DNA from: an uncultured Methanosarcinales archaeon | GTDB taxonomy: Archaea > Nanobdellota > Nanobdellia > Woesearchaeales > CAIVOO01 | Length of the DNA stretch: 64,000 bases | Reading direction: 5' to 3' | NCBI GenBank assembly: GCA_964485195.1 | Contig: CAZAIK010000007.1 | Location: 1 to 64,000, forward strand | In this document: positions 1,163 to 13,831 of the stretch, one piece after another | How positions within the stretch are numbered: position 1 is the first letter of the stretch | How the letters are laid out: every line of letters begins with the position of its first letter | Made by a program: the position numbers and the translations under genes | Notes under the pieces: model-generated | Databases searched by the model: none | Seen by the model: only the letters and a program-made list of their open reading frames with translations | Told to the model about the DNA's origin: nothing

Positions 1163-1816
1163 ATGCCAGAAAACAAAGAATATTCAGAAGGAGTTAATAA
1201 GATAAAGGAAGTGTCAGATGAGATTCTTGAGTCTGGCAAGAAATACGGCCTTGACGTAATGGAAACAGGCTCTTACAAAATACTCCTGGACTCCAGCGTT
1301 GAGACTGATGAAAACGGTTATGTTACAGCAATCAAGGCAGCGGATGAAAAGGACACTTCTGAGAGGATAAACCAATACCAGAGAAGCCATATGTTCATGA
1401 AAGTGCTGGGGTGGGACGAAAAAGACCTTGAGGAGTTCGACCAGAAGTTTGCCTCAAAGAACATGGACATCAACGGAACAGAGGTTACCAGGCAGATAGA
1501 GTCTGCAAACGGCCTTGCATCAAGAGATGTGCTTGAAGCCACAGTGAAGCAGGTAAATGCCAATGGATTCACGCCTGAGGAAGCAGCAAAATCTGTCAAG
1601 GGGACTCTTGACAGCTTTGTAGAGAACCAGCAGAAAAATCTGCTTGGCAGGGTTCCATTGAGAACAATGGATGATATTCAGGCAATGCATGAATACCTGG
1701 AAACATTCGGCGTAAACGCACAGGGAGTTGCAGACCCGCAGGCATTAATGAGGCTGTACCAGCAGACCCTTGGAGCATATGCGCAGATGAGGGCGATGCA
1801 AGAAAACCAAGGCTAA
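1163..1816 (+). CDS. hypothetical protein (acidic, helical, Gln-rich C-terminus)
   Basis: Long ORF; ATG at 1163 preceded by GAGGTGAGGTG. Confidence 0.75.
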   Translation: MPENKEYSEGVNKIKEVSDEILESGKKYGLDVMETGSYKILLDSSVETDENGYVTAIKAADEKDTSERINQYQRSHMFMKVLGWDEKDLEEFDQKFASKNMDINGTEVTRQIESANGLASRDVLEATVKQVNANGFTPEEAAKSVKGTLDSFVENQQKNLLGRVPLRTMDDIQAMHEYLETFGVNAQGVADPQALMRLYQQTLGAYAQMRAMQENQG

Positions 1817-2661
1817 TTTTTTCTTTTTTTCTTGACCTTCTTCTTTTCCTTGTCCAATTCCTGCACCACGTTTATCATATAGACTCTTGCGTATACGAAC
1901 AGCAGAAGCAATAAAATCGTTCCTGTCACGATTCCCACTATGATGCTCAGGCTCAGCAGGAAATAGGTTATTAAATTGACAATCAAAGCAAGTATTAACA
2001 CGATAATATAGGAGACAAGCACTTTCAGTTTCAGGAACGAGAAAAGCACTGTTTTCTTGAGCACTTCCCTGACAGTGCCTTTCAGTGAATAGGATACAAG
2101 CGCAAAATAGCCTATCACGGCAAATGCCGCAATCATTCCAATGCTGAGTATTGACTCATTTGGGGCGTTCTGGAACGCAAGCGCGTTGCTGAAGAACAGC
2201 TGCACAGAAATGTATATTATTAGGGATACAAGCGCTATCCATATCGCGCTGACAGCAGCGAAACCCTTAAGGTATTGAAGATACTCCGCTTTCCTTCCTG
2301 AAATCCTGAAGGCGTTCCACCAGTTGAATGCCTGGAAGGCCACCCACACTACAAATATTGATATTGCCAGGAAAAACGCCAGTTTTTTTATCTGGAGAAG
2401 CTCCCTTGCTATGTCCTGGGCTATGGGAGTGGCTGAGTAAATGTCCTGGCTTTGCAGGGCAGAGGTCATTGAGGGGGTCTGCTGCATTATGGCGCTTGCG
2501 TGAGAAACTATCTTGCTGAAATAGAGCGTGTAGACAAAGCTGAAAACCGTGAGGAACACCACATCAGCCACGATAATAACAATCCCCCAGGGCCACTTTT
2601 TGACTATGTCAAGGAATGTCTTTCTCAGGTTGTCTGCAGGTTCGTATCCTATTCGCCCCAT
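1813..2661 (-). CDS. multi-pass membrane protein
   Basis: About 6 hydrophobic segments and a Lys-rich tail. Confidence 0.75.
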   Translation of the reverse strand: MGRIGYEPADNLRKTFLDIVKKWPWGIVIIVADVVFLTVFSFVYTLYFSKIVSHASAIMQQTPSMTSALQSQDIYSATPIAQDIARELLQIKKLAFFLAISIFVVWVAFQAFNWWNAFRISGRKAEYLQYLKGFAAVSAIWIALVSLIIYISVQLFFSNALAFQNAPNESILSIGMIAAFAVIGYFALVSYSLKGTVREVLKKTVLFSFLKLKVLVSYIIVLILALIVNLITYFLLSLSIIVGIVTGTILLLLLFVYARVYMINVVQELDKEKKKVKKKRKN

Positions 2662-2747
2662 ACAAAAGGCAATTCCGCCTTTATTTTTATATTTTGTGGA
2701 TTTATCCCAAAAACAATTTTTTTAAATCTATGGTGATTTCTACTATC

Positions 2748-3230
2748 ATGCTTCCGGTAATATTCAGCAACGGAATATCTGTAACCAGGGTCAGCTGGCT
2801 GGCTGAATACGCCCCGGGAATTTTGCTGGGCTTCCTGATATTCGGCATCCTGGTTGCAGTTTACCTTCTGATCAGGTTCTTCAAGAAGTCAAGGTTTGAG
2901 AGGGAAATGATGATGAGGGCAGAGATAGCAGGAGAGTATGAAGAGAGAAGAAAGGCAGAGCAGAAGGAGAAGCGAAAGAGGAGCAGGAAGAAAAAGAATG
3001 AGAGCCTGGAATACAAGCCAATAGTCGGCGTGGACAATCATCTTAAGGAAGAGGAGAAGCAGGTTGTTAACATCCTGAAGGAAAGGGAAGGCAGGGCAGA
3101 GCAGGGAACCCTGAGGGTAGTTTCCGGGCTGCCAAAGTCCAGCCTTAGCAGGATTCTCAAGGAGCTGGAAGAGCGCAAAATAGTACACAAGGAGAAGAGG
3201 GGCAAGAAGAATATGGTTTTTCTTAAGTAG
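2748..3230 (+). CDS. membrane-anchored winged helix-turn-helix protein
   Basis: N-terminal TM segment; C-terminal EEEKQVV...QGTLRVVSGLPKSSLSRILKELEERKIVHKEKRGKKN wHTH; start placed at the ATG downstream of TTTTTAAA. Confidence 0.75.
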   Translation: MLPVIFSNGISVTRVSWLAEYAPGILLGFLIFGILVAVYLLIRFFKKSRFEREMMMRAEIAGEYEERRKAEQKEKRKRSRKKKNESLEYKPIVGVDNHLKEEEKQVVNILKEREGRAEQGTLRVVSGLPKSSLSRILKELEERKIVHKEKRGKKNMVFLK

Positions 3231-3509
3231 CCGGCCAGCGGACATAATCATTTTTGGGCAATTCCGGCAATGAAGGCCACAAGATAAAAAGACAGAAAAA
3301 GTTAGGAAGTTGCCCTTTAAAGTTTGTTTTTTATAAAAACCAGCAAAATCAAAATAACAGTTCTGGAACGTTTTGGAACCAAAAGGAAGTCATTTTGGAC
3401 TTCTTTTTCTGTTTTCTCGCATCGTTCCAGAGGCAAGGTATTTCTTTGTTTTGATTTTATTCATCATAGTGGGCAAAAGACCTGGCAAAATGATTTTACT
3501 ACTAATCCA

Positions 3510-3572
3510 TAGTCAAAAACAAAACATTTATATATGACCTCCCTATAACGTAGCTACCATAAGATGGTAAAA
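3510..3572 (+). promoter_or_regulatory. BRE/TATA promoter, copy 2 of the shared extended motif
   Basis: TAGTCAAAAACAAAACATTTATATATGACCT followed by TACCATAAGATGGTA. Confidence 0.75.
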
Positions 3573-3618
3573 AGGGTGTTTTTGTGGAAAAGCCATCCAA
3601 AGCTCGCGAGGTTAAAAA

Positions 3619-5679
3619 ATGAGAGACATGCTAAGAAATGCCAAGAATAATATTAAGAAAGAAGCTTCCACTCTAAAAGAGATTCTAAATACTGACATAA
3701 AGGACACTGCTATGTGGGAAACACTTAACAGGGATGTTCTTGATATTGCTGCAGATTGGTATGCCAACAACGTCGGCACGCTAAGGCAAAGGCCGGACAT
3801 TGAAGCTATTGAGCCTTCCAATGGACTGAACCTTGTTTTCGCAGCAAACGAAGACGGCTCCCTGACAGAAAAGGCGCAGGAATATTTTGACAAGATTACA
3901 GGCGCCATAAACACAGAAAAAAATTATGGAACCCTCGCAAAGGTCGCAGCAGGCGCAGGAACTGTTGGACTGGCATTCGCACTGGCTCCCCAGGTAGGCT
4001 TTGGAGCTGACAATCCTGATGGCGCAGGCATGCCGTGGGAATGGGGAGGTCCTGTTATTGACCAATCCCAGGAACCCTTAACAGTTGTTAATGACCTGGG
4101 CATGACAAGAGGTGATGTTTACAACACAATTGAAAAAAATGAGGCGGCATTCTTTGGCTTTGCCTGGGATGCAGAAGTCAACGGCGCAAACCTTGAACTG
4201 GAACTGGACAATCCTGAAGGTTACAAGACACCCCAAAACCAGCAGATGTGGAAGACAGAGCAGATAGCAAACGCTCTTAACTCCCTTGGATATCACCTGA
4301 TACCTGAAGAGCAGGCAAGGCCACAGGTAGAGGATATTGTTGCAAGATTCGTAAGGCAGTACAGGGGAAAGGAGATAGACCCTGAACAGCTTCAACTCCC
4401 CAGAGGACCTGACGGAGCTTTCAAAGACGTGATTTACCCTGACGGAAGCATTACAGGAGTGAGGCCCGGCCACATCATCATAAAGAAAGGGGAAAGCCTC
4501 GCGCTGACACCTGAAAATGTCAGGCCAGTGGCTGACCATATAATTGTCAAGACAATAGTAAACCAGGGCGACCTTTATGTCCAGTCAGGGCAGTGCCCTG
4601 CTGATTATGAGATAGACGGAGACGGCATTTGCGTGCCCTGCGAAGGAAAAGGGAATAAAGAACCAGCCAAGCAGGACAGCAATGGCGTGTCCGTAGCACC
4701 GCCTTCTGACATCACCAAGTCTCAGGATGACATTTCAGGGGATGGCAAGCCAGATGTAAATGGCGGAAAGAACAACAAAGTCCCGAACGGAAAGTTAGAT
4801 GAAGAGGACCTGGGAGCAAGGATTAGCCTGCAGGGACTTGAAGGGCTTGATGCTTATGCAAATTTCAGGTACACAGACAACATGTGGAAGTCTGTTGTTG
4901 AAAACCCTGATGAAAACGGGGTTCCAATGGAGTCAGAGGAAACAGCACACAATCAGGATTTAAGCGCAAATGCAGCGCTTGTTTATATGTTCCACCCCAA
5001 TATAGGAGTGGGTGTTGCAGGAGAATACGAATCCTTTGGCGGAAAAGAAAAAGGAAGCTCAGCCAAGGGAAGGCTTGATCTGGTTCTGGATTCAGAATAC
5101 GGACAGCTAAGACTGGGCTGGGTTCCGGTAGGGCTTGCAGTCCAGAACATTGAAAGAAATGACGATGAAAACGACCTTAAAGTTTCAAGGGAGATGCAGG
5201 CAGGAGGCTTTGAAGGAAGATATGTCTCTCCAGACTTGTGGAACGGAGAGCAGCAGGCATTCCTCGTGCTTGGCTACAACTCCCTGAACGGAGACAGCAA
5301 AAGCAAGGTAGAATTTGACGTTGAAGGGCTGGACATTCCAGACCAGAAAACAAAAGGGGACTACAGCAACGACAGCCTTGACGCAATGGCAAGAGTTTTG
5401 TTCCTGAAAACTCCTTTCGGCCCTGTGGGAATGCAGGCATCCTATGGACAGGAGCATTCAGAAGTTGAGGATGGCCAGTGGGACCAGGCAAGATATGGAA
5501 TCGGACCTGCAATGGCAATTCCAGTGGACATACTTGGACAGGACGCATTTGTTGACGTGTCAGGAGAATGGCAGTGGGCTGAGCAGGACCCTCACGAAGA
5601 CTCTGTCAAGGAATCCTCGTCAGAAGGATTTTACTTTCAGGTTGGAATAAGGCCAGGAGACAGGGGGCCTTTATACTGA
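3619..5679 (+). CDS. putative exported protein with C-terminal beta-barrel-like domain
   Basis: 686-aa ORF; internal signal-like hydrophobic segment (~aa 107-130); Cys motif CPADYEIDGDGICVPC; ~12 alternating amphipathic strands ending GFYFQVGIRP. Confidence 0.7.
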   Translation: MRDMLRNAKNNIKKEASTLKEILNTDIKDTAMWETLNRDVLDIAADWYANNVGTLRQRPDIEAIEPSNGLNLVFAANEDGSLTEKAQEYFDKITGAINTEKNYGTLAKVAAGAGTVGLAFALAPQVGFGADNPDGAGMPWEWGGPVIDQSQEPLTVVNDLGMTRGDVYNTIEKNEAAFFGFAWDAEVNGANLELELDNPEGYKTPQNQQMWKTEQIANALNSLGYHLIPEEQARPQVEDIVARFVRQYRGKEIDPEQLQLPRGPDGAFKDVIYPDGSITGVRPGHIIIKKGESLALTPENVRPVADHIIVKTIVNQGDLYVQSGQCPADYEIDGDGICVPCEGKGNKEPAKQDSNGVSVAPPSDITKSQDDISGDGKPDVNGGKNNKVPNGKLDEEDLGARISLQGLEGLDAYANFRYTDNMWKSVVENPDENGVPMESEETAHNQDLSANAALVYMFHPNIGVGVAGEYESFGGKEKGSSAKGRLDLVLDSEYGQLRLGWVPVGLAVQNIERNDDENDLKVSREMQAGGFEGRYVSPDLWNGEQQAFLVLGYNSLNGDSKSKVEFDVEGLDIPDQKTKGDYSNDSLDAMARVLFLKTPFGPVGMQASYGQEHSEVEDGQWDQARYGIGPAMAIPVDILGQDAFVDVSGEWQWAEQDPHEDSVKESSSEGFYFQVGIRPGDRGPLY

Positions 5680-5683
5680 TCAA

Positions 5684-8600
5684 ATGAAAAAGATAAACTT
5701 GTTTTTTATATTCGCAATATTGATTTTGCTAGCTGTTCCCATGGGAATGGCTGACCCGGCTGTTGTCATACAGCCAGACCCTGCAAATGACCTGGACACC
5801 CTGCATTGCGTTGTCCAGGCGGGCGGTTCCGGCTATACCTATGAATGGAAAAGGAACGGGCAGTCCACTTCTATTTCAGGAGCATATGTCTCCCCAAGCT
5901 ATACATCTGCAGGGGACACCTGGACTTGCAAAGTCAAGAAATATTACGGCTCATCCATAGGATGGATTAACATAGGCCAGGACTCAATATATGTTTACTC
6001 AAGCGCCAACCAGGTTCCTGTGGTCAACATTACCAATCCGGATAACGGCGAATCCTTTATTGAAAACACATCAATAAATTTTGCAGGAACAGCGAATGAC
6101 CCTGAGGACGGCACAATCTGGGACCCTAATGCTTACCAGTGGTTTTCAGACATTGACGGCGGTTTCGGCACAGGCAATAACATAAGCTATGATATGCTTT
6201 CAGTGGGAACCCACGTCATCACCCTTGAAGTAACGGACAGCCAGGGAGGCACGGGTTCTGACTCAATCACGATTGTCATTGACCCCCAGAGTGTCAACCA
6301 GCCACCACTAGTTCAGATTACAGCGCCGAATGATGGCGATTCATTTTTCAACGGGACAAGCATACTGTTCACAGGCTCAGCAGTTGACCCTGAAGATGGT
6401 GTGCTGACAGGAACAGATTTGCAGTGGTATTCTGATGTTGACGGCAATTTCGGTTTAGGAACGTCAGTAAGCTATGATTCCCTCTCAATCGGAACGCACA
6501 CAATCACTCTGGTGGCGACTGACAGCAACGGAGTAAGTGCAAATGATTCAATAACAATAACAATAAACGCAACACCTGCAAACAATCCTCCTGTGGTAAA
6601 CATCACGCTGCCTGTGAACGGCACAAGTTTCAGCTGCGGGCAGCTTGTGAATTTTGAGGGCTCAGCATACGACCCTGACAACGACCCTTTAACTCTCAGA
6701 TGGTTTTCCAGCATAGACAATCTTCTGGGTTATGGAAACACCACGCAGGACATATTGACCTGCAACGCAACCCACCAGATTGACTTTGTTGCAGACGACG
6801 GCCAGGCAAATGCAACAGACACCATATATATAGTGATAGGAGCCAACCTGACAACAAACAACCCTCCTAACGCAACAATAATCTCGCCTGTGAATGGCTC
6901 ACAATACGTGGAATGCCAGGAAATACTCTTTAATGGCACAGCCCAGGACGTTGAGGGAATCAGCTCAATAGCCTGGATTTACGACAGCGCTTCCATAAGC
7001 AACAACCTCACCTTTTCAAGAAGCGGATATTACTTTGGAGAGGGAAACCACTCAATAACCTTCAGGGTAACAGACACAGACGGGAACATCAATGAAACAA
7101 CAGTTTCCTTTGAGGTAGTAAGGCACCAGGCACCCACAGTGACAATCGGCCAGCCAGCTAACGGCACCCAATGGAACGTGGGAACCCTGCTTAACTTCAG
7201 CGCCACGGCAGTCAACAACGACGCAGTATGCCCCACAAACTATACCTGGATATGGGAGGACAACTTCAACCAGATATGGAACCAGTCCAGAAGCTTCAGC
7301 ACAAGCAATCTCAGCATTGGGAACCACACCATAACAGCGTACGCCATTGATGCATACAACAGGTCAGGCTCAGACCAGATCCAGATAGAGATACTTGAAA
7401 TACCAAACGACCTGCCTGTTGCGCAGATAATCTCCCCCAACAATAATGACTCATTCATAAACGAATGCCAGGACATATTCTTCAATGCATCAGCATACGA
7501 CCCTGACGGCAATGTAACAGAGTACCAATGGGTATGGAACAGCAATGTAATCGGCAGTTCAAGCAATTTCACAATGCCTGCCTCCTATTTCGGGAACGGC
7601 AACCACACAGTAAGGCTGATTGTGAGAGACAACAGGAACGGACAGAACTCCACAACAGTGAATTTCACGGTCGTGCCCCACTTGGCGCCCAGCATCACAA
7701 TAACATCCCCTGCCAACAACTCAAACTTTTCAGAAGGCACTATGGTGAACTTTTCAGCAGTGGCAGTGGCAAACGACGCCTGCCCTGTGAATTTCTCATA
7801 CACCTGGATGGAAAATGCAGAAGTGCTGGCAAATTCAGAGAATTTCAGCACAGGCAACCTGTCAGTCGGAACGCACCAGATAGTCGCAAGAGTGGATGAT
7901 TCCTACAGCTTGTATGACACTGACTCAGTAATTGTAAACATACTGGAGATACCAAACATTCTTCCCAACATAACTGACATTACCTGCTACAATGAGACCG
8001 GCGGAACAGCCCTGAGGGAATTCGAGCCTATAACGTGCATCGCGCAGGCAAACGACCCGGACGGCAACATAACCTCCTGGGTGTGGTCGGTTCAGAACTT
8101 TTACGGACCATTCTTCCTGAACAACACATTTAACGTGCCATCACCATATCTTGAAAACGGCACATACAATGTATCCTTGACAGTCCAGGACAATGACCTG
8201 AACCAGTCCACAAGAATGGAGCAGATAACTGTGCAGAACAACGCGCCTGTTGTAACACTTGTTTCCAATGTAACTGACGGTACAGAGCCTATGGAAGTCA
8301 GCTTCACTTGCAGCGTGCAGAATGGCACGGGGAACAGGCCTTACTCATACTCATTTAATTTCGGAAACGGAGTCACAGACACCTATTCAGGAAATGAGAC
8401 AACCCTGAATTACACTATTGACTATATGCAAAACGGCACTTACACAGCCGTCTGCACTGTCACGGACAGGGACGGTGACGTTGGCAGCGCCAACCTTACC
8501 ATAAACGTAAATGACACAGTTCCTGTAGGCAATTTCAACTGGACCCCGCAGGCGCCTTATGAATGCACTAATGTGCAGTTCACCAGCAATGTTTCAGCAT

Positions 8601-11600
8601 ATGACGGCATATTGTCATACTTCTGGGACTTTATGGACGGAAGCAATTCCACGCTTGAAAATCCTGTTCACAACTTCACGCAGAACGGCACTTACAATGT
8701 CGAGCTTAACGTTACTGACAGGGACTTCAGCTCCTCTGTATTCACAAACACTGTCTTCGTCAACGACACAGTGCCGATAGTTGAGGCAGGCCCTGACAGG
8801 TATGTTGTTGAAGGGAACAACCTTACATTCATAGGAAGCGCAATCCCAAGGTGCGACGCGGTAGTGGATTATGAATGGTATTTTGAGGATGACGGCTCCA
8901 CTATGAACGGGCAAGTGGTCTCGCACAACTTCACGCAGAACGGAACATACACAGTTGTTTTCACAGCAATAGACTCAGACGGAAGCAGGGCATCTGACAA
9001 CCTTACAGTTGTTGTTAACGATACAGCACCGAATGCGCAGGGATTCGCAATACCCAACCCAGTGGTGGAGGGAAACCAGGCAGTGCTCAATGCAAGCCTT
9101 TCCGCAGGCTATGACCAGCCATTAAATTATGAATGGAACATAAACGGAACAATCGTGACAGGCGAAATAACAAATTACACCTTCGGACCATACCTTACAA
9201 ACAACCCTGTCTTGGTTGAGGTAAACCTCACAGTCACGGACGCTGACGGAAGCGCAGATAATGATTCAATAATAGTTGTGGTCCTGGACTCAGTGCCAAA
9301 CGCCAGCTTTACAGCAACCCCAAATCCTGTTGTGGAAGGACAGCAGGCAACATTTGATGCCGGCGCGAGCACGGCATTTGATGGAATATCAAATTACACC
9401 TGGGACTTTGGTGACGGAACTAATGTGACAGTCACTGCAAACCCTGTAATAAATCACAATTTCAGCCAGAACGGCACCTACCTTGTAAGGCTAACTGTCA
9501 CAGACCTTGACGGCAGCACAGATGAAGAGACCCTTGCAATGGTTGTGACAGACACAGTTCCTGTGGCAGGTTTCACATGGGACCCTAACCTTCCCCTTGA
9601 AGGTGAGCAGGTAAACTTCACTGACCAGTCAACTGCATATGATACGCCTTTGAGCTACATCTGGGACTTCGGGGACAACACCTCAGTAAGCAACCAGCAG
9701 AACGCAACCCACACTTACTTATACAACGGCACGTACAATGTTGCCCTGACAGTAATAGACAGCGACGGAAGCGTTAACAGCACAACAAGGCAGATTACAA
9801 TAGGCAACAGCGTGCCTTCAGTGTCATTCACAGCAAATCCTTCCTCAGGGGACGAATTGCTGAACGTGTCGTTCAACTGCTCAGCAGTGTCAGGAAACCT
9901 TCCTTACACTTTCAATCTTGTCTTCAATGGAGGGCTGAACCCAAACATCACCACTAAAACAGACACAGGTGTTTTGGCAACAAACTCCTACTTAAACGGA
10001 ACATACACAGCAACGTGCACAGTGACAGACTTTGACGGTGATTCCGCATCAAGCAGCGTCACCATCCTCGTGAATGACCTGGGCCCGACTGCCATCCTTA
10101 CAGGAAACCTCACCCTTTATGAAGGAGAGACAGGAACTTATGATGCGTCAAACTCAACATCATCCCCTGACTCAATTGTTCAGTACGAATGGGACTGGAA
10201 TTACCCTTCATCCTTTGCAATAGGAAATGCTGTGGAAAGCCACACATTTGAAGACAGCGGCTCATATGATGTTGCGGTGAGGGTGACAGACAGCGACGGG
10301 ACGCAGGATACAGCTGTAATAACCGTGAATGCGATAAACCTGCCTCCGACAGTGAACTTCCTGCAGCCACTGTATGAGACAAATGAATCAACAGAAATAA
10401 CCATGCAGGCAAATGCAACAGACCCAAGCATAGTGGACCAGGCAAGCCTGATTTACGAATGGGACTTTGATTACAGGGGAGGAACCTTCACAGTTGACAA
10501 CACTACCGCAACACCTTACATAACAATGAACTGGACTGACGACAGGAATGTCACAATTGCTGTGAGAGCAGTGGACAAGGACGGGGGAGTGAGCGACCCT
10601 GACTATGCAGAGCTGCTTGTTCATAATGTCCCGCCAACACCTCTGCTGGCAGGACCTTACATATGCAGCAACCAGACAGTCAGCAACGCTTCCAACGTGA
10701 CATTGTTCGTAATGCTTGAAGACCCGGGCAACGACACATTCGTGCATCTTTGGAATATTACAGACGATACCGCTGTTCAGATTAACACAGCAGACAGGAA
10801 CTCGTCAGTTACCTTTGTGTGCACAGGAAGGCCCACAGGAATTTACAACGTGACATTCGAGGCGTGGGACGACGACTGGGGCTATTCAGGAGTTTACACA
10901 ACATACATCAATGTCACAGACTCACTGGCCAACATGCCTCCTACAATAGTCGCACCTTCAGAGAACCAGACAATAAACGCGCAGGTTAACACAACCTCAA
11001 ATTTCACAGTCCTGGCATGGGACCCTAACGGAGACAACCTAACCTTCAATTTCAATGATTCAACCATAATAAAAGGGAGCCAGAACCAGAGCATGGGATT
11101 TGTAACGCTTCCAATATCATACAATTATACTCAGATAGGGGTTTATGAAATAAATCTCACAGTGTGCGATGATTCAGGATATGCAAACAACTGCACCAGC
11201 AGGCTTTTCAGCATTAATGTAACTGAACAGGCAGTTGTTAATCAGGAGCCGGTAGCCGATGCTAACGGACCTTACTCAGGAGATGAGGGAAGCCCTGTTG
11301 CATTTGACGGCTCAGGAAGCTACGATCCTGATGGAAGCATAGTGGCGTACTCGTGGGATTTCGGAGACGGCAACACAGCAGCTGTCCAGAACCCGAATCA
11401 CACTTACGGCGAAAACGGCAGTTACACAGTGACGCTCACAGTTGTTGATGACAGCGGAGCCACAAACACAACCACAACATCTGCATTAGTGGACAATGTT
11501 GCCCCCACTGCCGATGCAGGAGGCCCATACACCTGCGCAGTAGGCGAGAACTTAACACTTTACGGCAGCGGAAGCGACCCTGCAGGGATAAACGACCCTC

Positions 11601-13831
11601 TTGGTTACGCATGGGACCTTGACAACGATGGGGCTTATGATGATTCAGCAAGCCAGAACGCAACATACACCTGCACGGCAACAGGAATCTACACAGTCAG
11701 CCTTAATGTAAGTGACGACGATGGAGGCTCCTCAACCGATTCAGCAACGGTGAACGTAACAGCCCTTCCTGACACCTCACCCCCTGTTGTTATGCTTGAA
11801 TCACCGGCAGACGGCAGTGAATGGAACATCTCAAATGATGTGTTATTTGAGTATAATGTAACAGATTCCGAAAGCGCCATAGCACACTGTGAACTGATTA
11901 TAAACGGCACTTCAACAATCACGGACAACTCAGTTTCAGAAGGGGTGACCCAAAACTTCACATTAACCCTTTCAGACGGGGCGTACACGTGGAGTGTTAA
12001 CTGCACTGACGCCTCCTCAAACCAGAATGAAGGGGCAAGCAGTTCAAGGTTACTGGTTATCAACACAACCTCGCCTTCAGCAGGAAACGGCACGATAATA
12101 AACTCAACAATTTATGGAGGGTTTTACGCTAACAACGCATCTTCAGATGTTTCTGAAACTCTTGTTTCAAACACAACCTGGATGCATAACTCAACCGTCC
12201 AGGGAAATCCGGTGGTGAACATCACGGGAAACAATAACCTTACTTATGCAATACTAACAAACGTAACAGCAATACATAACTGCACTGCAATAGGAAACTC
12301 AACAAGCCCAACCGAGCTTACCAACACCCAGTGCGTTAACCAGGTAGTAGACCCTTCCACAATCAGCGACAGTGACATTACGGGAACGAAAACAATAACA
12401 AACTCAATCATACTTGACTCCAACGCAACATACAATGAGATCATAACTAATTCAGAAATATACAGCTCCACTGTGAACAACTCAGAGGTTTACTACAGCC
12501 TTATTAACAGAAGCCAGGTTTATGATTCAATAATAAACTACTCAACAATCCTGGATTCGATAGTGAGGAACTCAACCATACAGAATTCAACAATAGACAA
12601 CTCAACAGTAATTGACTCAAATGTTTCCTACTCAACCATCTCTGACTCTGACATTACAGGGTCTGAAGTGACAAATTCCACAATTGACAATTCAAATGTT
12701 ACGAACTCCACTGTTGACAATTCAAACATTACCAACTCCACTGTTGACAATTCCACTATTGAGGATTCCAATATTATAAATTCAACTATCATAGACTCAA
12801 ACATAACAAATTCAACCATAATCAACGGCACAATAATCAATGAGACAATAAGCAACTCAGTGATTAACGGCACAGAGGTTTGCGGAGGAACAGTGAACGG
12901 CATAGAACTGAACGGCTCTTGCATATACTTCCCTGTGATAGAAAACTTCAGTGTACCGTCCTCGGCAAACACAGGGGAGAATGTGAATTTAAATGTTGAG
13001 ATAAGCAACCAGAACTCAAGCAATAATGAGTCAGCCAGCCCATACACTTATGAATGGAGCTTTGGGGATGGCAATGCAAACGAAGTCAAAAAGAATGAGA
13101 CTACAGATTCAAAAACACATTCATACTCCTCAAGCGGGACTTACACAGTCAGCATTGTCGTATCCAACAAGTACAATCTATCAGCAGCAGACTCAGGAAC
13201 GATTACCATTAGCGACCAGTCAAACGGGGGTGGTAGTGACGGCGGTGGTGGCGGAAGCAGCAGCACAGGAGGCTCCCCATCAGGTCAATCAGGCCTTTTG
13301 ACCCTGACCGGAGAGAAAAAGTGCTTTGACCTCGAAGACGGAGAGCCTGAGGACATTTACATCGACATAAATAAGTTAATATGCTTTGAATTTGAAGGGG
13401 AAGAGTACACCATAGAATTCACGCAGGTCACGAATGGAAGCGCAGACATGCTGATACATCCCCCAAGGATACCTGTCACACTGCTTGAGAGAGGGACAAC
13501 CATAGAGGACCTGAACGAGGACTTCACAGATGACTTAAGCATGAGGCTGAATGAGGTTGTCAGGGAAGTTGACGAACAGGGCTTCGTGAGCTGGAAGGCA
13601 GATATTACCTTAAGGCTGGTCAATCTCGGAGAAGAGGAGGAAGAAGAGTCTGTGGTTGAGGACGTGAAGGGAACACTTTCAGATGTGAAGAGAGGCGTGC
13701 TTGACGTCGCAGGAAAAATCAACCCGGCAGAAGGCGCATCACCTTACATAGGCACAGGAATAGCTGCAGGAATAGTTGCAGTGGGCCTTGCAGGATATGT
13801 GGTCTTCAGGAAGAGAAAACCAAAACTTTAA
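5684..13831 (+). CDS. giant PKD/Ig-like repeat cell-surface glycoprotein (adhesin-like)
   Basis: Signal peptide; many WDFGDG and GTYxVxLTVxDxDG PKD motifs; dense N-x-S/T sequons; Gly/Ser linker; C-terminal TM plus RKRKPKL. Confidence 0.92.
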   Translation: MKKINLFFIFAILILLAVPMGMADPAVVIQPDPANDLDTLHCVVQAGGSGYTYEWKRNGQSTSISGAYVSPSYTSAGDTWTCKVKKYYGSSIGWINIGQDSIYVYSSANQVPVVNITNPDNGESFIENTSINFAGTANDPEDGTIWDPNAYQWFSDIDGGFGTGNNISYDMLSVGTHVITLEVTDSQGGTGSDSITIVIDPQSVNQPPLVQITAPNDGDSFFNGTSILFTGSAVDPEDGVLTGTDLQWYSDVDGNFGLGTSVSYDSLSIGTHTITLVATDSNGVSANDSITITINATPANNPPVVNITLPVNGTSFSCGQLVNFEGSAYDPDNDPLTLRWFSSIDNLLGYGNTTQDILTCNATHQIDFVADDGQANATDTIYIVIGANLTTNNPPNATIISPVNGSQYVECQEILFNGTAQDVEGISSIAWIYDSASISNNLTFSRSGYYFGEGNHSITFRVTDTDGNINETTVSFEVVRHQAPTVTIGQPANGTQWNVGTLLNFSATAVNNDAVCPTNYTWIWEDNFNQIWNQSRSFSTSNLSIGNHTITAYAIDAYNRSGSDQIQIEILEIPNDLPVAQIISPNNNDSFINECQDIFFNASAYDPDGNVTEYQWVWNSNVIGSSSNFTMPASYFGNGNHTVRLIVRDNRNGQNSTTVNFTVVPHLAPSITITSPANNSNFSEGTMVNFSAVAVANDACPVNFSYTWMENAEVLANSENFSTGNLSVGTHQIVARVDDSYSLYDTDSVIVNILEIPNILPNITDITCYNETGGTALREFEPITCIAQANDPDGNITSWVWSVQNFYGPFFLNNTFNVPSPYLENGTYNVSLTVQDNDLNQSTRMEQITVQNNAPVVTLVSNVTDGTEPMEVSFTCSVQNGTGNRPYSYSFNFGNGVTDTYSGNETTLNYTIDYMQNGTYTAVCTVTDRDGDVGSANLTINVNDTVPVGNFNWTPQAPYECTNVQFTSNVSAYDGILSYFWDFMDGSNSTLENPVHNFTQNGTYNVELNVTDRDFSSSVFTNTVFVNDTVPIVEAGPDRYVVEGNNLTFIGSAIPRCDAVVDYEWYFEDDGSTMNGQVVSHNFTQNGTYTVVFTAIDSDGSRASDNLTVVVNDTAPNAQGFAIPNPVVEGNQAVLNASLSAGYDQPLNYEWNINGTIVTGEITNYTFGPYLTNNPVLVEVNLTVTDADGSADNDSIIVVVLDSVPNASFTATPNPVVEGQQATFDAGASTAFDGISNYTWDFGDGTNVTVTANPVINHNFSQNGTYLVRLTVTDLDGSTDEETLAMVVTDTVPVAGFTWDPNLPLEGEQVNFTDQSTAYDTPLSYIWDFGDNTSVSNQQNATHTYLYNGTYNVALTVIDSDGSVNSTTRQITIGNSVPSVSFTANPSSGDELLNVSFNCSAVSGNLPYTFNLVFNGGLNPNITTKTDTGVLATNSYLNGTYTATCTVTDFDGDSASSSVTILVNDLGPTAILTGNLTLYEGETGTYDASNSTSSPDSIVQYEWDWNYPSSFAIGNAVESHTFEDSGSYDVAVRVTDSDGTQDTAVITVNAINLPPTVNFLQPLYETNESTEITMQANATDPSIVDQASLIYEWDFDYRGGTFTVDNTTATPYITMNWTDDRNVTIAVRAVDKDGGVSDPDYAELLVHNVPPTPLLAGPYICSNQTVSNASNVTLFVMLEDPGNDTFVHLWNITDDTAVQINTADRNSSVTFVCTGRPTGIYNVTFEAWDDDWGYSGVYTTYINVTDSLANMPPTIVAPSENQTINAQVNTTSNFTVLAWDPNGDNLTFNFNDSTIIKGSQNQSMGFVTLPISYNYTQIGVYEINLTVCDDSGYANNCTSRLFSINVTEQAVVNQEPVADANGPYSGDEGSPVAFDGSGSYDPDGSIVAYSWDFGDGNTAAVQNPNHTYGENGSYTVTLTVVDDSGATNTTTTSALVDNVAPTADAGGPYTCAVGENLTLYGSGSDPAGINDPLGYAWDLDNDGAYDDSASQNATYTCTATGIYTVSLNVSDDDGGSSTDSATVNVTALPDTSPPVVMLESPADGSEWNISNDVLFEYNVTDSESAIAHCELIINGTSTITDNSVSEGVTQNFTLTLSDGAYTWSVNCTDASSNQNEGASSSRLLVINTTSPSAGNGTIINSTIYGGFYANNASSDVSETLVSNTTWMHNSTVQGNPVVNITGNNNLTYAILTNVTAIHNCTAIGNSTSPTELTNTQCVNQVVDPSTISDSDITGTKTITNSIILDSNATYNEIITNSEIYSSTVNNSEVYYSLINRSQVYDSIINYSTILDSIVRNSTIQNSTIDNSTVIDSNVSYSTISDSDITGSEVTNSTIDNSNVTNSTVDNSNITNSTVDNSTIEDSNIINSTIIDSNITNSTIINGTIINETISNSVINGTEVCGGTVNGIELNGSCIYFPVIENFSVPSSANTGENVNLNVEISNQNSSNNESASPYTYEWSFGDGNANEVKKNETTDSKTHSYSSSGTYTVSIVVSNKYNLSAADSGTITISDQSNGGGSDGGGGGSSSTGGSPSGQSGLLTLTGEKKCFDLEDGEPEDIYIDINKLICFEFEGEEYTIEFTQVTNGSADMLIHPPRIPVTLLERGTTIEDLNEDFTDDLSMRLNEVVREVDEQGFVSWKADITLRLVNLGEEEEEESVVEDVKGTLSDVKRGVLDVAGKINPAEGASPYIGTGIAAGIVAVGLAGYVVFRKRKPKL
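12362..12890 (+). repeat. coding pentapeptide repeat (NSTI[D/I], DSNI[T]); predicted beta-solenoid
   Basis: Around 30 consecutive 5-residue units; DNA-level near-identical AACTCCACTGTTGACAATTC with 30-bp period near 12704-12753. Confidence 0.8.

Follow-up and report, generated by a model that had tools for sequence, protein, structure and literature searches.

Can an archaeon build a pore-forming barrel of the kind that bacteria place in their outer membranes? Textbooks treat transmembrane beta-barrels as markers of diderm bacteria and of the organelles that descend from them, the insertion of such barrels is thought to need machines of the Omp85 family, and, to our knowledge, archaea do not make pore-forming barrels of the bacterial outer-membrane type. 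The question is raised by an open reading frame (ORF) at 3619..5679 on the plus strand of a 64,000-nucleotide stretch of an archaeal contig, CAZAIK010000007.1, which we refer to as the window. An initial annotation of this DNA had called the ORF, and its coordinates are exact; the product is 686 amino acids (aa) long, and the gene is present in a single copy in its host genome (G000). We denote its product P0001 and the other proteins of its family P0002 to P0007. The best explanation of the sequence is that the ORF encodes an exported, modular envelope protein made of a signal or anchor segment, a globular domain of ~215 aa, a disulfide loop, a stalk, and a C-terminal domain of ~280 aa. We read this C-terminal domain as a 14-stranded, porin-like transmembrane beta-barrel, and we put at about even the chance that the whole is a stalked porin-like membrane barrel working with a neighboring giant adhesin at a cell-cell or envelope interface.

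Strand pattern of the C-terminal domain

The candidate barrel occupies aa 396-686 (4804..5676, plus strand), for which ~14 amphipathic strands are predicted. Counted without overlap, dyad strands of 9 residues number 11 in this region; shuffled sequences gave 3.78 +/- 1.54, and none of them (0 of 2000) reached 11. In six homologues the observed dyad-strand count was reached by only 0 to 11 of 2000 shuffles. The preceding region, aa 131-395, is at chance in this respect, with 3 dyad strands where 2.2 are expected, a count reached in 798 of 2000 shuffles. Read by eye, the family profile, which is drawn from an eight-member alignment, resolves into 14 strands with seven long loops alternating with six short turns, and both termini of the domain fall on the short-turn side. 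An even number of strands, with long loops on one side and short turns on the other, is the arrangement that defines bacterial barrels. A strict strand caller applied to the same profile returned 11 strands, five of them at least 9 aa long. As controls, the OmpG family, a solved 14-strand structure, gave 14 strands (six of at least 9 aa), and 13 aligned PKD repeats gave 2 short ones; the first 395 aa of the ORF product gave 3. The initial annotation had described a tail of about 12 alternating strands: the alternation stands, far above that of shuffled sequences, but the number 12 gives way to about 14 by eye and 11 by the strict caller. Its broader point, that the sequence of the tail follows the grammar of a transmembrane beta-barrel, is borne out by the strand pattern, by the alternation of loops and turns, and by the porins that a protein language model lists as neighbors.

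The composition of the strands can be resolved face by face. Pooled over the family, the apolar face is made of A, L, V, I, F, and Y, with 2.6% charged and 23.5% aromatic residues, and the polar face of G, S, D, E, and N, with 25.8% charged residues and 19.5% Gly; both sets of figures are partly circular, as the strands are themselves defined by pattern. The domain is acidic, with a net charge of -30 over aa 396-686. The most conserved motif of the family, V-E-x-P-D-x-N-G-V-P (4897..4929, plus strand), lies inside the 29-residue first long loop, and the last long loop, of the E-Q-D-P-H-D-D-S-V-K type (5581..5610, plus strand), is likewise conserved. The last strand, FYFQVGIR (5629..5652, plus strand), is followed by an 8-residue tail, PGDRGPLY.

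A native and very rare archaeal gene

The ORF is native to the archaeal genome and is not misassembled. The host genome amounts to 1.126 Mb on 32 contigs and is 99.5% complete. Its assignment to a DPANN archaeon of the Woesearchaeota/Nanoarchaeia type holds: TFIIB, a split RpoB, and RpoA'/A'' are encoded on the ORF's own contig (C7), and the RpoB relatives in public genomes, which are 65-80% identical, carry the names Candidatus Woesearchaeota, Nanoarchaeia, or Nanoarchaeota. The host is tiny and probably partner-dependent.

Bacterial DNA brought into the bin by misassembly, contamination, or a very recent transfer would be another account of a porin-like tail in such a genome, and composition lends it something: with a GC content of 0.487 the ORF ranks at the 92nd percentile of long ORFs and, with a tetranucleotide correlation of 0.757, at the 5th percentile of 2-kb chunks, and two contigs of the bin do carry canonical bacterial barrel genes. 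The flanks of the ORF, however, are compositionally typical (tetranucleotide correlation, 0.94-0.96), its contig correlates with the rest of the genome at 0.992, and the genes for giant surface proteins of this genome are all at least as odd as the ORF (0.49-0.78). The same archaeal neighbors accompany the gene in five assemblies, and searches for bacterial, plasmid, or phage relatives found none. The worry voiced in the initial annotation, that the segment might be misassembled bacterial DNA, was checked against contigs of two runs, and these bridge the junctions of the ORF: one contig of run X1, possibly from the source sample, spans 2600-6600 with 0 differences, and most of 2600-6600, both junctions included, is also matched with 0 differences by five contigs of another sample from the same study. 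Because the contigs of two samples match with 0 differences and the composition of the contig is typical, misassembly and contamination are very unlikely, and we give a bacterial origin of the segment by any of these routes next to no credence.

The family is very rare. An exhaustive phmmer search of 1.84 billion representatives returned seven proteins at E <= 0.001, the query included, with lengths of 573-723 aa; none of the six others has a name beyond "hypothetical" in its source, and each belongs to a cluster of 1-3 members. Whole genomes of 61 relatives yielded the family in three, all of the same GTDB family, and the tail domain occurs in 2 of 401 genomes of the order and in 1 of 401 genomes of a phylum-wide sample, that one being G000 itself. 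There are no paralogues of any of the three ORF regions in G000, and plasmid and phage searches for relatives of the ORF gave no match. A search of genome contigs for related loci with a five-member alignment produced 10 pattern matches, none of which was confirmed, and word-indexed alignment searches recovered only P0001 and P0002, or nothing.

Domain layout upstream of the tail

The initial annotation had listed a displaced signal-like stretch, a passenger-like region, a Cys motif, a low-complexity linker, and a beta-rich tail, and all of these are present. The protein opens with an N-terminal extension (aa 1-105; 3619..3933, plus strand) that carries, ahead of the hydrophobic segment, a family motif of the W/L-x-x-L-N-x-D-x-x-D-L type. 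The motif also occurs in the N-termini of P0002-P0007 and of the homologue in genome G003, in n-regions of ~20 to 105 aa. The extension is long in P0001 and P0002, measures 20-60 aa in other members, and is absent in P0005; because it is conserved in P0002, the displaced signal-like segment is not an artifact of the start codon. The long n-region is reminiscent of the extended signal peptide regions (ESPR) of bacterial type V proteins, a resemblance with no Pfam match behind it. The Ala/Gly-rich hydrophobic segment that follows (aa 106-130; 3934..4008, plus strand) contains the best Kyte-Doolittle 19-mer of the protein (1.51) and would be either the core of a signal peptide or a signal anchor; by eye, A-x-A-like sites come after it in most homologues.

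The globular domain (aa 131-345; 4009..4653, plus strand) belongs to an undescribed family in which Q206 and H285 are invariant and D270 is nearly so, and it is closed by a Cys loop made of C326, C338, and C341 (nucleotides 4594-4641). No relative of it was found in Pfam, NCBIfam, PDB, or Atlas. In one other assembly, a stand-alone 243-aa copy of this domain (L006:5454-6185, plus strand) lies directly upstream of full-length P0005 and bears a Tat-like RR motif and a lipobox-like ...LASC signal. The low-complexity stalk or linker (aa 346-395; 4654..4803, plus strand) is rich in K, D, N, G, P, and S, where the stalks of relatives have Cys-rich repeats or short collagen-like G-X-Y runs instead. 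In P0004 (aa ~252-299) and in the homologue from genome G001 (L003:1354-3087), collagen-like G-X-Y runs precede a Cys-rich knot; the stalk of P0002 has three Cys-loop repeats; and one family member has PHROG and NCBIfam matches to collagen-like repeats only. Judged across these relatives, the stalk is a variable cassette. It may also trimerise, since the collagen-like triplets in the stalks of two family members hint at trimers.

Weighing a membrane barrel against its alternatives

A number of results weigh against a transmembrane barrel, beginning with homology. P0001 matched no Pfam or NCBIfam family at E <= 10, and no family member matches any Pfam barrel family above cut-off; PF13505 (OMP_b-brl) appears in the beta domain of 3 of 10 members at E values of 0.011-0.033 and 14.8-16.3 bits, below the cut-off of 28.7. 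PDB profile searches found nothing real, and a profile search among proteins of 144-538 aa gave nothing at E <= 1. Aligned by hhalign, the family profile (A4) and an OmpG profile (A5) gave a probability of 0.58% over 29 columns, a comparison whose sensitivity is limited by the low diversity of A5 (18 OmpG homologues, all from Enterobacterales and at least 56% identical). Alignment of the tail by hhalign with single sequences, namely Escherichia coli OmpG and an outer-membrane protein (OMP) encoded on contig C19 of the bin, was uninformative. The machinery is also missing: the Omp85/BamA homologue that the initial annotation proposed to look for did not turn up, PF01103 having no match at E <= 1 in a genome that is 99.5% complete. 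TamB is absent from this genome, Skp/OmpH searches returned noise only, and the Gcw_chp, KdgM, and Porin_4 families were not found in it. Nor is a C-terminal aromatic beta-signal conserved. The terminal GFYFQVGIR had been likened to such a signal, and it does contain the last strand, but in 8 of 8 members 6-15 more residues follow that strand, and only P0001 and P0002 end in Tyr; the canonical bacterial barrels on contigs C19 and C14, by contrast, end in ...VFYF and ...IKFIF. Finally, the literature searched reports no second membrane for the Woesearchaeota lineage.

The sequence heuristics have to be read with their controls. The neighbors listed by the language model are all bacterial outer-membrane porins (FomA, OmpG, CymA, and an autotransporter), with a top score of 0.93, but by the tool's own figures 4-10% of shuffled proteins also score at least 0.9. 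We calibrated a lenient strand counter (N9), together with the grand average of hydropathy (GRAVY), on E. coli, with 13 barrels and 101 negatives, the latter being those of 138 negative ORFs (200 aa or longer) in which no hydrophobic 19-mer occurs. The family, with N9 of 8-11 and GRAVY of -0.28 to -0.56, lies within the range of the 13 barrels. At N9 >= 8 and GRAVY <= -0.3, thresholds that were picked after the data were seen, 7 of 8 family members pass, the G001 homologue narrowly failing the GRAVY cut, and 0 of 101 E. coli negatives do. The PKD adhesin next to the ORF (11, -0.31) and other beta-sandwich giants of G000 pass as well, so that the filtered count tells the barrels of E. coli from its negatives but fails to set them apart from the archaeal PKD giants; N9 alone is dominated by helical transporters, and the hydrophobicity filters are needed. 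A beta-moment metric ranks the ORF 59th of 826, and a first crude strand counter placed it outside the top 25 of 1035 ORFs. Because the adhesin and sandwich giants pass and the beta-moment rank is unremarkable, these heuristics leave room for a soluble beta fold.

Such a fold, a ConA-like or jelly-roll sandwich that would serve as the distal binding head of a stalked adhesin or an S-layer-associated protein without entering a membrane, is the main rival of the barrel and to us possible but doubtful. Long alternating strands occur in large sandwiches too, DPANN genomes are rich in beta-sandwich surface proteins, and the inability of N9 and GRAVY to separate the PKD giants, the beta-moment rank, the lack of homology to any barrel family, the lack of a beta-barrel assembly machinery (BAM), and the domain's net charge of -30 all sit comfortably with it. 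The strict caller, however, found 2 short strands in the PKD profile against 11-14 strands here, five of them at least 9 aa long as in an OmpG-like pattern, and the strict alternation of long loops with short turns fits an all-next-neighbor meander better than a jelly roll. Gly makes up 19.5% of the polar face, Ala, Gly, and aromatics dominate the apolar one, and the language-model neighbors, porins throughout, include no lectins or sandwiches. Should the tail be a soluble sandwich after all, the finding would shrink to a rare, fast-evolving, stalked surface protein. Another way to read the same barrel is as a secreted or contact-delivered weapon that mainly permeabilises and kills prey rather than a stable nutrient channel. 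Known beta pore-forming toxins assemble their barrel from hairpins of many subunits and not as a monomeric 14-strand meander, which weakens this explanation; the stalk and the conserved globular domain suggest a tethered structure, and no toxin family was matched. In its favor, the genome encodes two SLT murein-cutting enzymes, the very fast divergence between congeners would fit an arms race, and the available text of one study proposes a bacteria-attacking, "vampiristic" lifestyle with pore-forming toxins for some Woesearchaeota (PMC9723730). We judge a weapon improbable.

The initial annotation had favored an autotransporter-like architecture, in which the upstream passenger would cross a second membrane by way of a 12-strand barrel, and this reading is not supported, although it has points of likeness in its favor. 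Like type Va autotransporters (PF03797), the ORF product has a long signal region and joins an exported N-terminal region to a barrel-like domain at the C-terminus; the order of passenger-like region, linker, and barrel-like domain is the same, and the unusually extended signal region recalls the ESPR, if without a Pfam match. But type Va proteins have a 12-strand PF03797 barrel with a helical linker in the pore, and the ORF family departs from them in family match, strand number, and linker type: PF03797 and the ESPR are unmatched at E <= 10 in 10 of 10 members, ~14 strands are counted, and in place of a conserved helix the linker consists of low-complexity, Cys-rich, or collagen-like sequence. 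The protein does not end with the last strand, a terminal aromatic is found in only 2 of 8 members, there is no terminal beta-signal, no Omp85/BamA is encoded, and the mid domain occurs on its own too, in an exported protein that has no barrel. An autotransporter is thus very improbable here. Two-partner secretion of the TpsB/Omp85 kind would at least suit the giant neighbor at the ORF, but PF01103 is absent from the genome, and a TpsB/Omp85 barrel has 16 strands plus POTRA domains, for which the ORF tail is too short.

Comparison with known porins and proposed mechanism

A porin-like membrane barrel has closer counterparts among channels and tethers. The monomeric 14-strand outer-membrane channels of the OmpG (PF09381), CymA (PF16941), and FomA-like kinds resemble the ORF tail in size (~280 aa), in strand count as we read it, in the grammar of long loops and short turns, and in the composition of the strand faces, and they are its nearest language-model neighbors. 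Unlike them, the tail is fused behind a 395-aa N-terminal region, has no conserved terminal aromatic, reaches an hhalign probability of only 0.6%, and comes from a protein (P0001) with no Pfam match. The layout of the whole protein recalls instead the OmpM/SlpA tether porins of diderm Terrabacteria, which, according to the accessible part of a study of VpOmpM1 (PMC10628300), have the same order of signal, globular domain, stalk, and C-terminal barrel. In the same source, OmpM is a trimer, which the collagen-like triplets in two stalks of the ORF family hint at too, and OmpM is shown to act as both tether and diffusion channel, the double role that we propose for the ORF product. The strand numbers differ, ~14 in the ORF tail against 16 in OmpM and, in the portion available of a second source, 30 in SlpA (PMC9388160). 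The ORF family has neither an SLH domain nor a coiled-coil match, unlike OmpM/SlpA, so that only the order of parts is alike, and there is no detectable sequence relation between the ORF product and these proteins. The hosts differ as well: that of the ORF is an archaeon without peptidoglycan, BAM, or a known outer membrane. With these differences allowed for, an OmpM-like layout fits the protein better than an autotransporter does.

If the tail is indeed a porin-like barrel, its operation might be envisaged as follows. The adhesin would grip the surface of a partner, and the barrel would be inserted in a lipid layer beyond the cytoplasmic membrane of the archaeon. The most plausible candidate for this layer is the outer membrane of a partner bacterium; the alternative would be an outer layer of the archaeon that has yet to be described. 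The short turns, like the two chain ends, would point toward the archaeon and the long, conserved loops away from it. Inserted without the help of BAM, the barrel would act as a diffusion channel for small solutes, and it would be kept attached to the envelope of the archaeon by the globular domain and the stalk, much as OmpM tethers and feeds diderm Firmicutes. We propose only tentatively, and with appreciably less confidence than the stalked barrel as such, the full claim that this is a BAM-independent, stalk-tethered archaeal pore with no detectable bacterial ancestor, lying in a non-cytoplasmic membrane that is either the partner's outer membrane or a second membrane of the archaeon.

The literature searched does not describe OMP-type barrels for Woesearchaeota or any other DPANN archaea, with one exception: a possible distal relative of PopA in Altiarchaeales receives a single line in one paper (PMC12228718). 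The main text of a large archaeal domain census does not contain the words "porin" and "outer membrane" (PMC13607799). A native archaeal barrel, if true, would offer a molecular way into how ultra-small archaea draw on partner cells, would bear on whether some of them have a second lipid layer, and would be a case from nature of a barrel that assembles without BAM. The size of the ORF product would permit its expression, refolding, and assay in bilayers, and the regulator and adhesin encoded beside it offer a further experimental entry point.

Neighboring genes and divergence of the locus

The gene lies in a conserved setting. In five independent assemblies (the window, G001, G003, L005, and L006), a minus-strand membrane protein, a DUF7343 regulator, and the ORF homologue follow in the same order, and a giant PKD adhesin comes next wherever the contig continues, its start within 4 nucleotides of the preceding stop or overlapping it. 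In the window, the membrane protein (1813..2661, minus strand) is a multi-pass protein of 282 aa whose family is undescribed, with no Pfam family above cut-off; homologues stand at the same position in L005, L006, and G001 (59% identity in G001). The regulator (2616..3230, plus strand), directly upstream of the ORF, is a membrane-anchored winged-helix protein with a C-terminal DUF7343 winged helix-turn-helix domain (PF24034; E = 1.1e-11; 47.4 bits at 3045-3224). It also precedes the homologue in G001, G003, L005, and L006 and is 53% identical to the G001 copy. The neighbors of the other five DUF7343 matches in the genome include no further barrel candidate.

Between the regulator gene and the ORF lies a stem-loop of 11 bp followed by a T-rich run (3381-3408, plus strand), which may end the regulator transcript. 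Further on, a TATA-like box, TTTATATAT (3527..3535, plus strand), read from the sequence as a putative archaeal promoter, stands ~85 nucleotides upstream of the start codon, and a Shine-Dalgarno-like GAGGT (3608..3612, plus strand) lies 6 nucleotides ahead of the ATG at 3619. A scan for sigma-70 promoters and terminators returned chance level only. We infer that the ORF has its own promoter downstream of the regulator and that it is translationally close-coupled to the adhesin.

The adhesin (5684..13831, plus strand) is a giant surface protein of 2715 aa with an N-terminal signal, 14 PKD_4 stretches, Big_7 domains, and a C-terminal transmembrane anchor. Its start lies 4 nucleotides past the stop of the ORF, the stop and start overlap in G001, and it is 55% identical to the G001 copy over 1867 aa. 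Ahead of the anchor, at aa ~2150-2350, lies a long series of pseudo-repeats rich in N-x-S/T (NSTIDNSNVTNSTVDNS...), which may form a stalk that is heavily N-glycosylated or beta-helical.

The ORF product itself diverges far faster than these neighbors. It is 22% identical to its G001 homologue (L098:8315-10048), from the same genus, whereas the regulator, the membrane protein, and the adhesin are 53-59% identical, a contrast that suggests cassette-like replacement or strong diversifying selection. Divergence this fast between congeners, at 22% against 53-59% for the neighbors, fits an exposed interaction surface, and since it is joined to tight coupling with an adhesin and to a dedicated membrane-bound regulator, the protein would appear to be a cell-surface interaction device.

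Other barrel and bacterial-type genes in the bin

Two small contigs of the bin carry barrel genes of the classic bacterial type. On C19 (4907 bp), a 195-aa OMP (C19:3261-3848, minus strand; L096) matches PF13505 at 32.7 bits, ends in ...GLVFYF, and lies beside a bacterial DUF885 protein, a lipobox protein, and a HybD-like fragment. On the 11-kb contig C14, a TonB-dependent-receptor-like protein of 1022 aa (C14:535-3603, plus strand; L110) has OMP_b-brl_4 (108 bits), Plug, and CarboxypepD_reg domains and ends in ...GIKFIF. The tetranucleotide correlations of C19 (0.83) and C14 (0.847) are both below the 5th percentile for contigs of their size; the two are probably mis-binned bacterial DNA and lend no support to a barrel in the ORF product.

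A secreted acidic protein of 436 aa (C9:14051-15361, plus strand; L089:2001-3311) has a last ~110 aa that resemble amphipathic strands and belongs to no Pfam family; compared with the ORF tail by hhalign, it gave a probability of 0.1%, with no similarity. A bacterial-type lipoprotein signal peptidase, LspA, is encoded at C4:57980-58357 (plus strand; PF01252, 108 bits). Two SLT murein transglycosylase domains, at C2:89972-90283 (plus strand; 85.9 bits) and C1:169488-169862 (minus strand; 60 bits), sit on large core contigs of this archaeon without peptidoglycan, and they fit the published idea of Woesearchaeota that attack bacteria.

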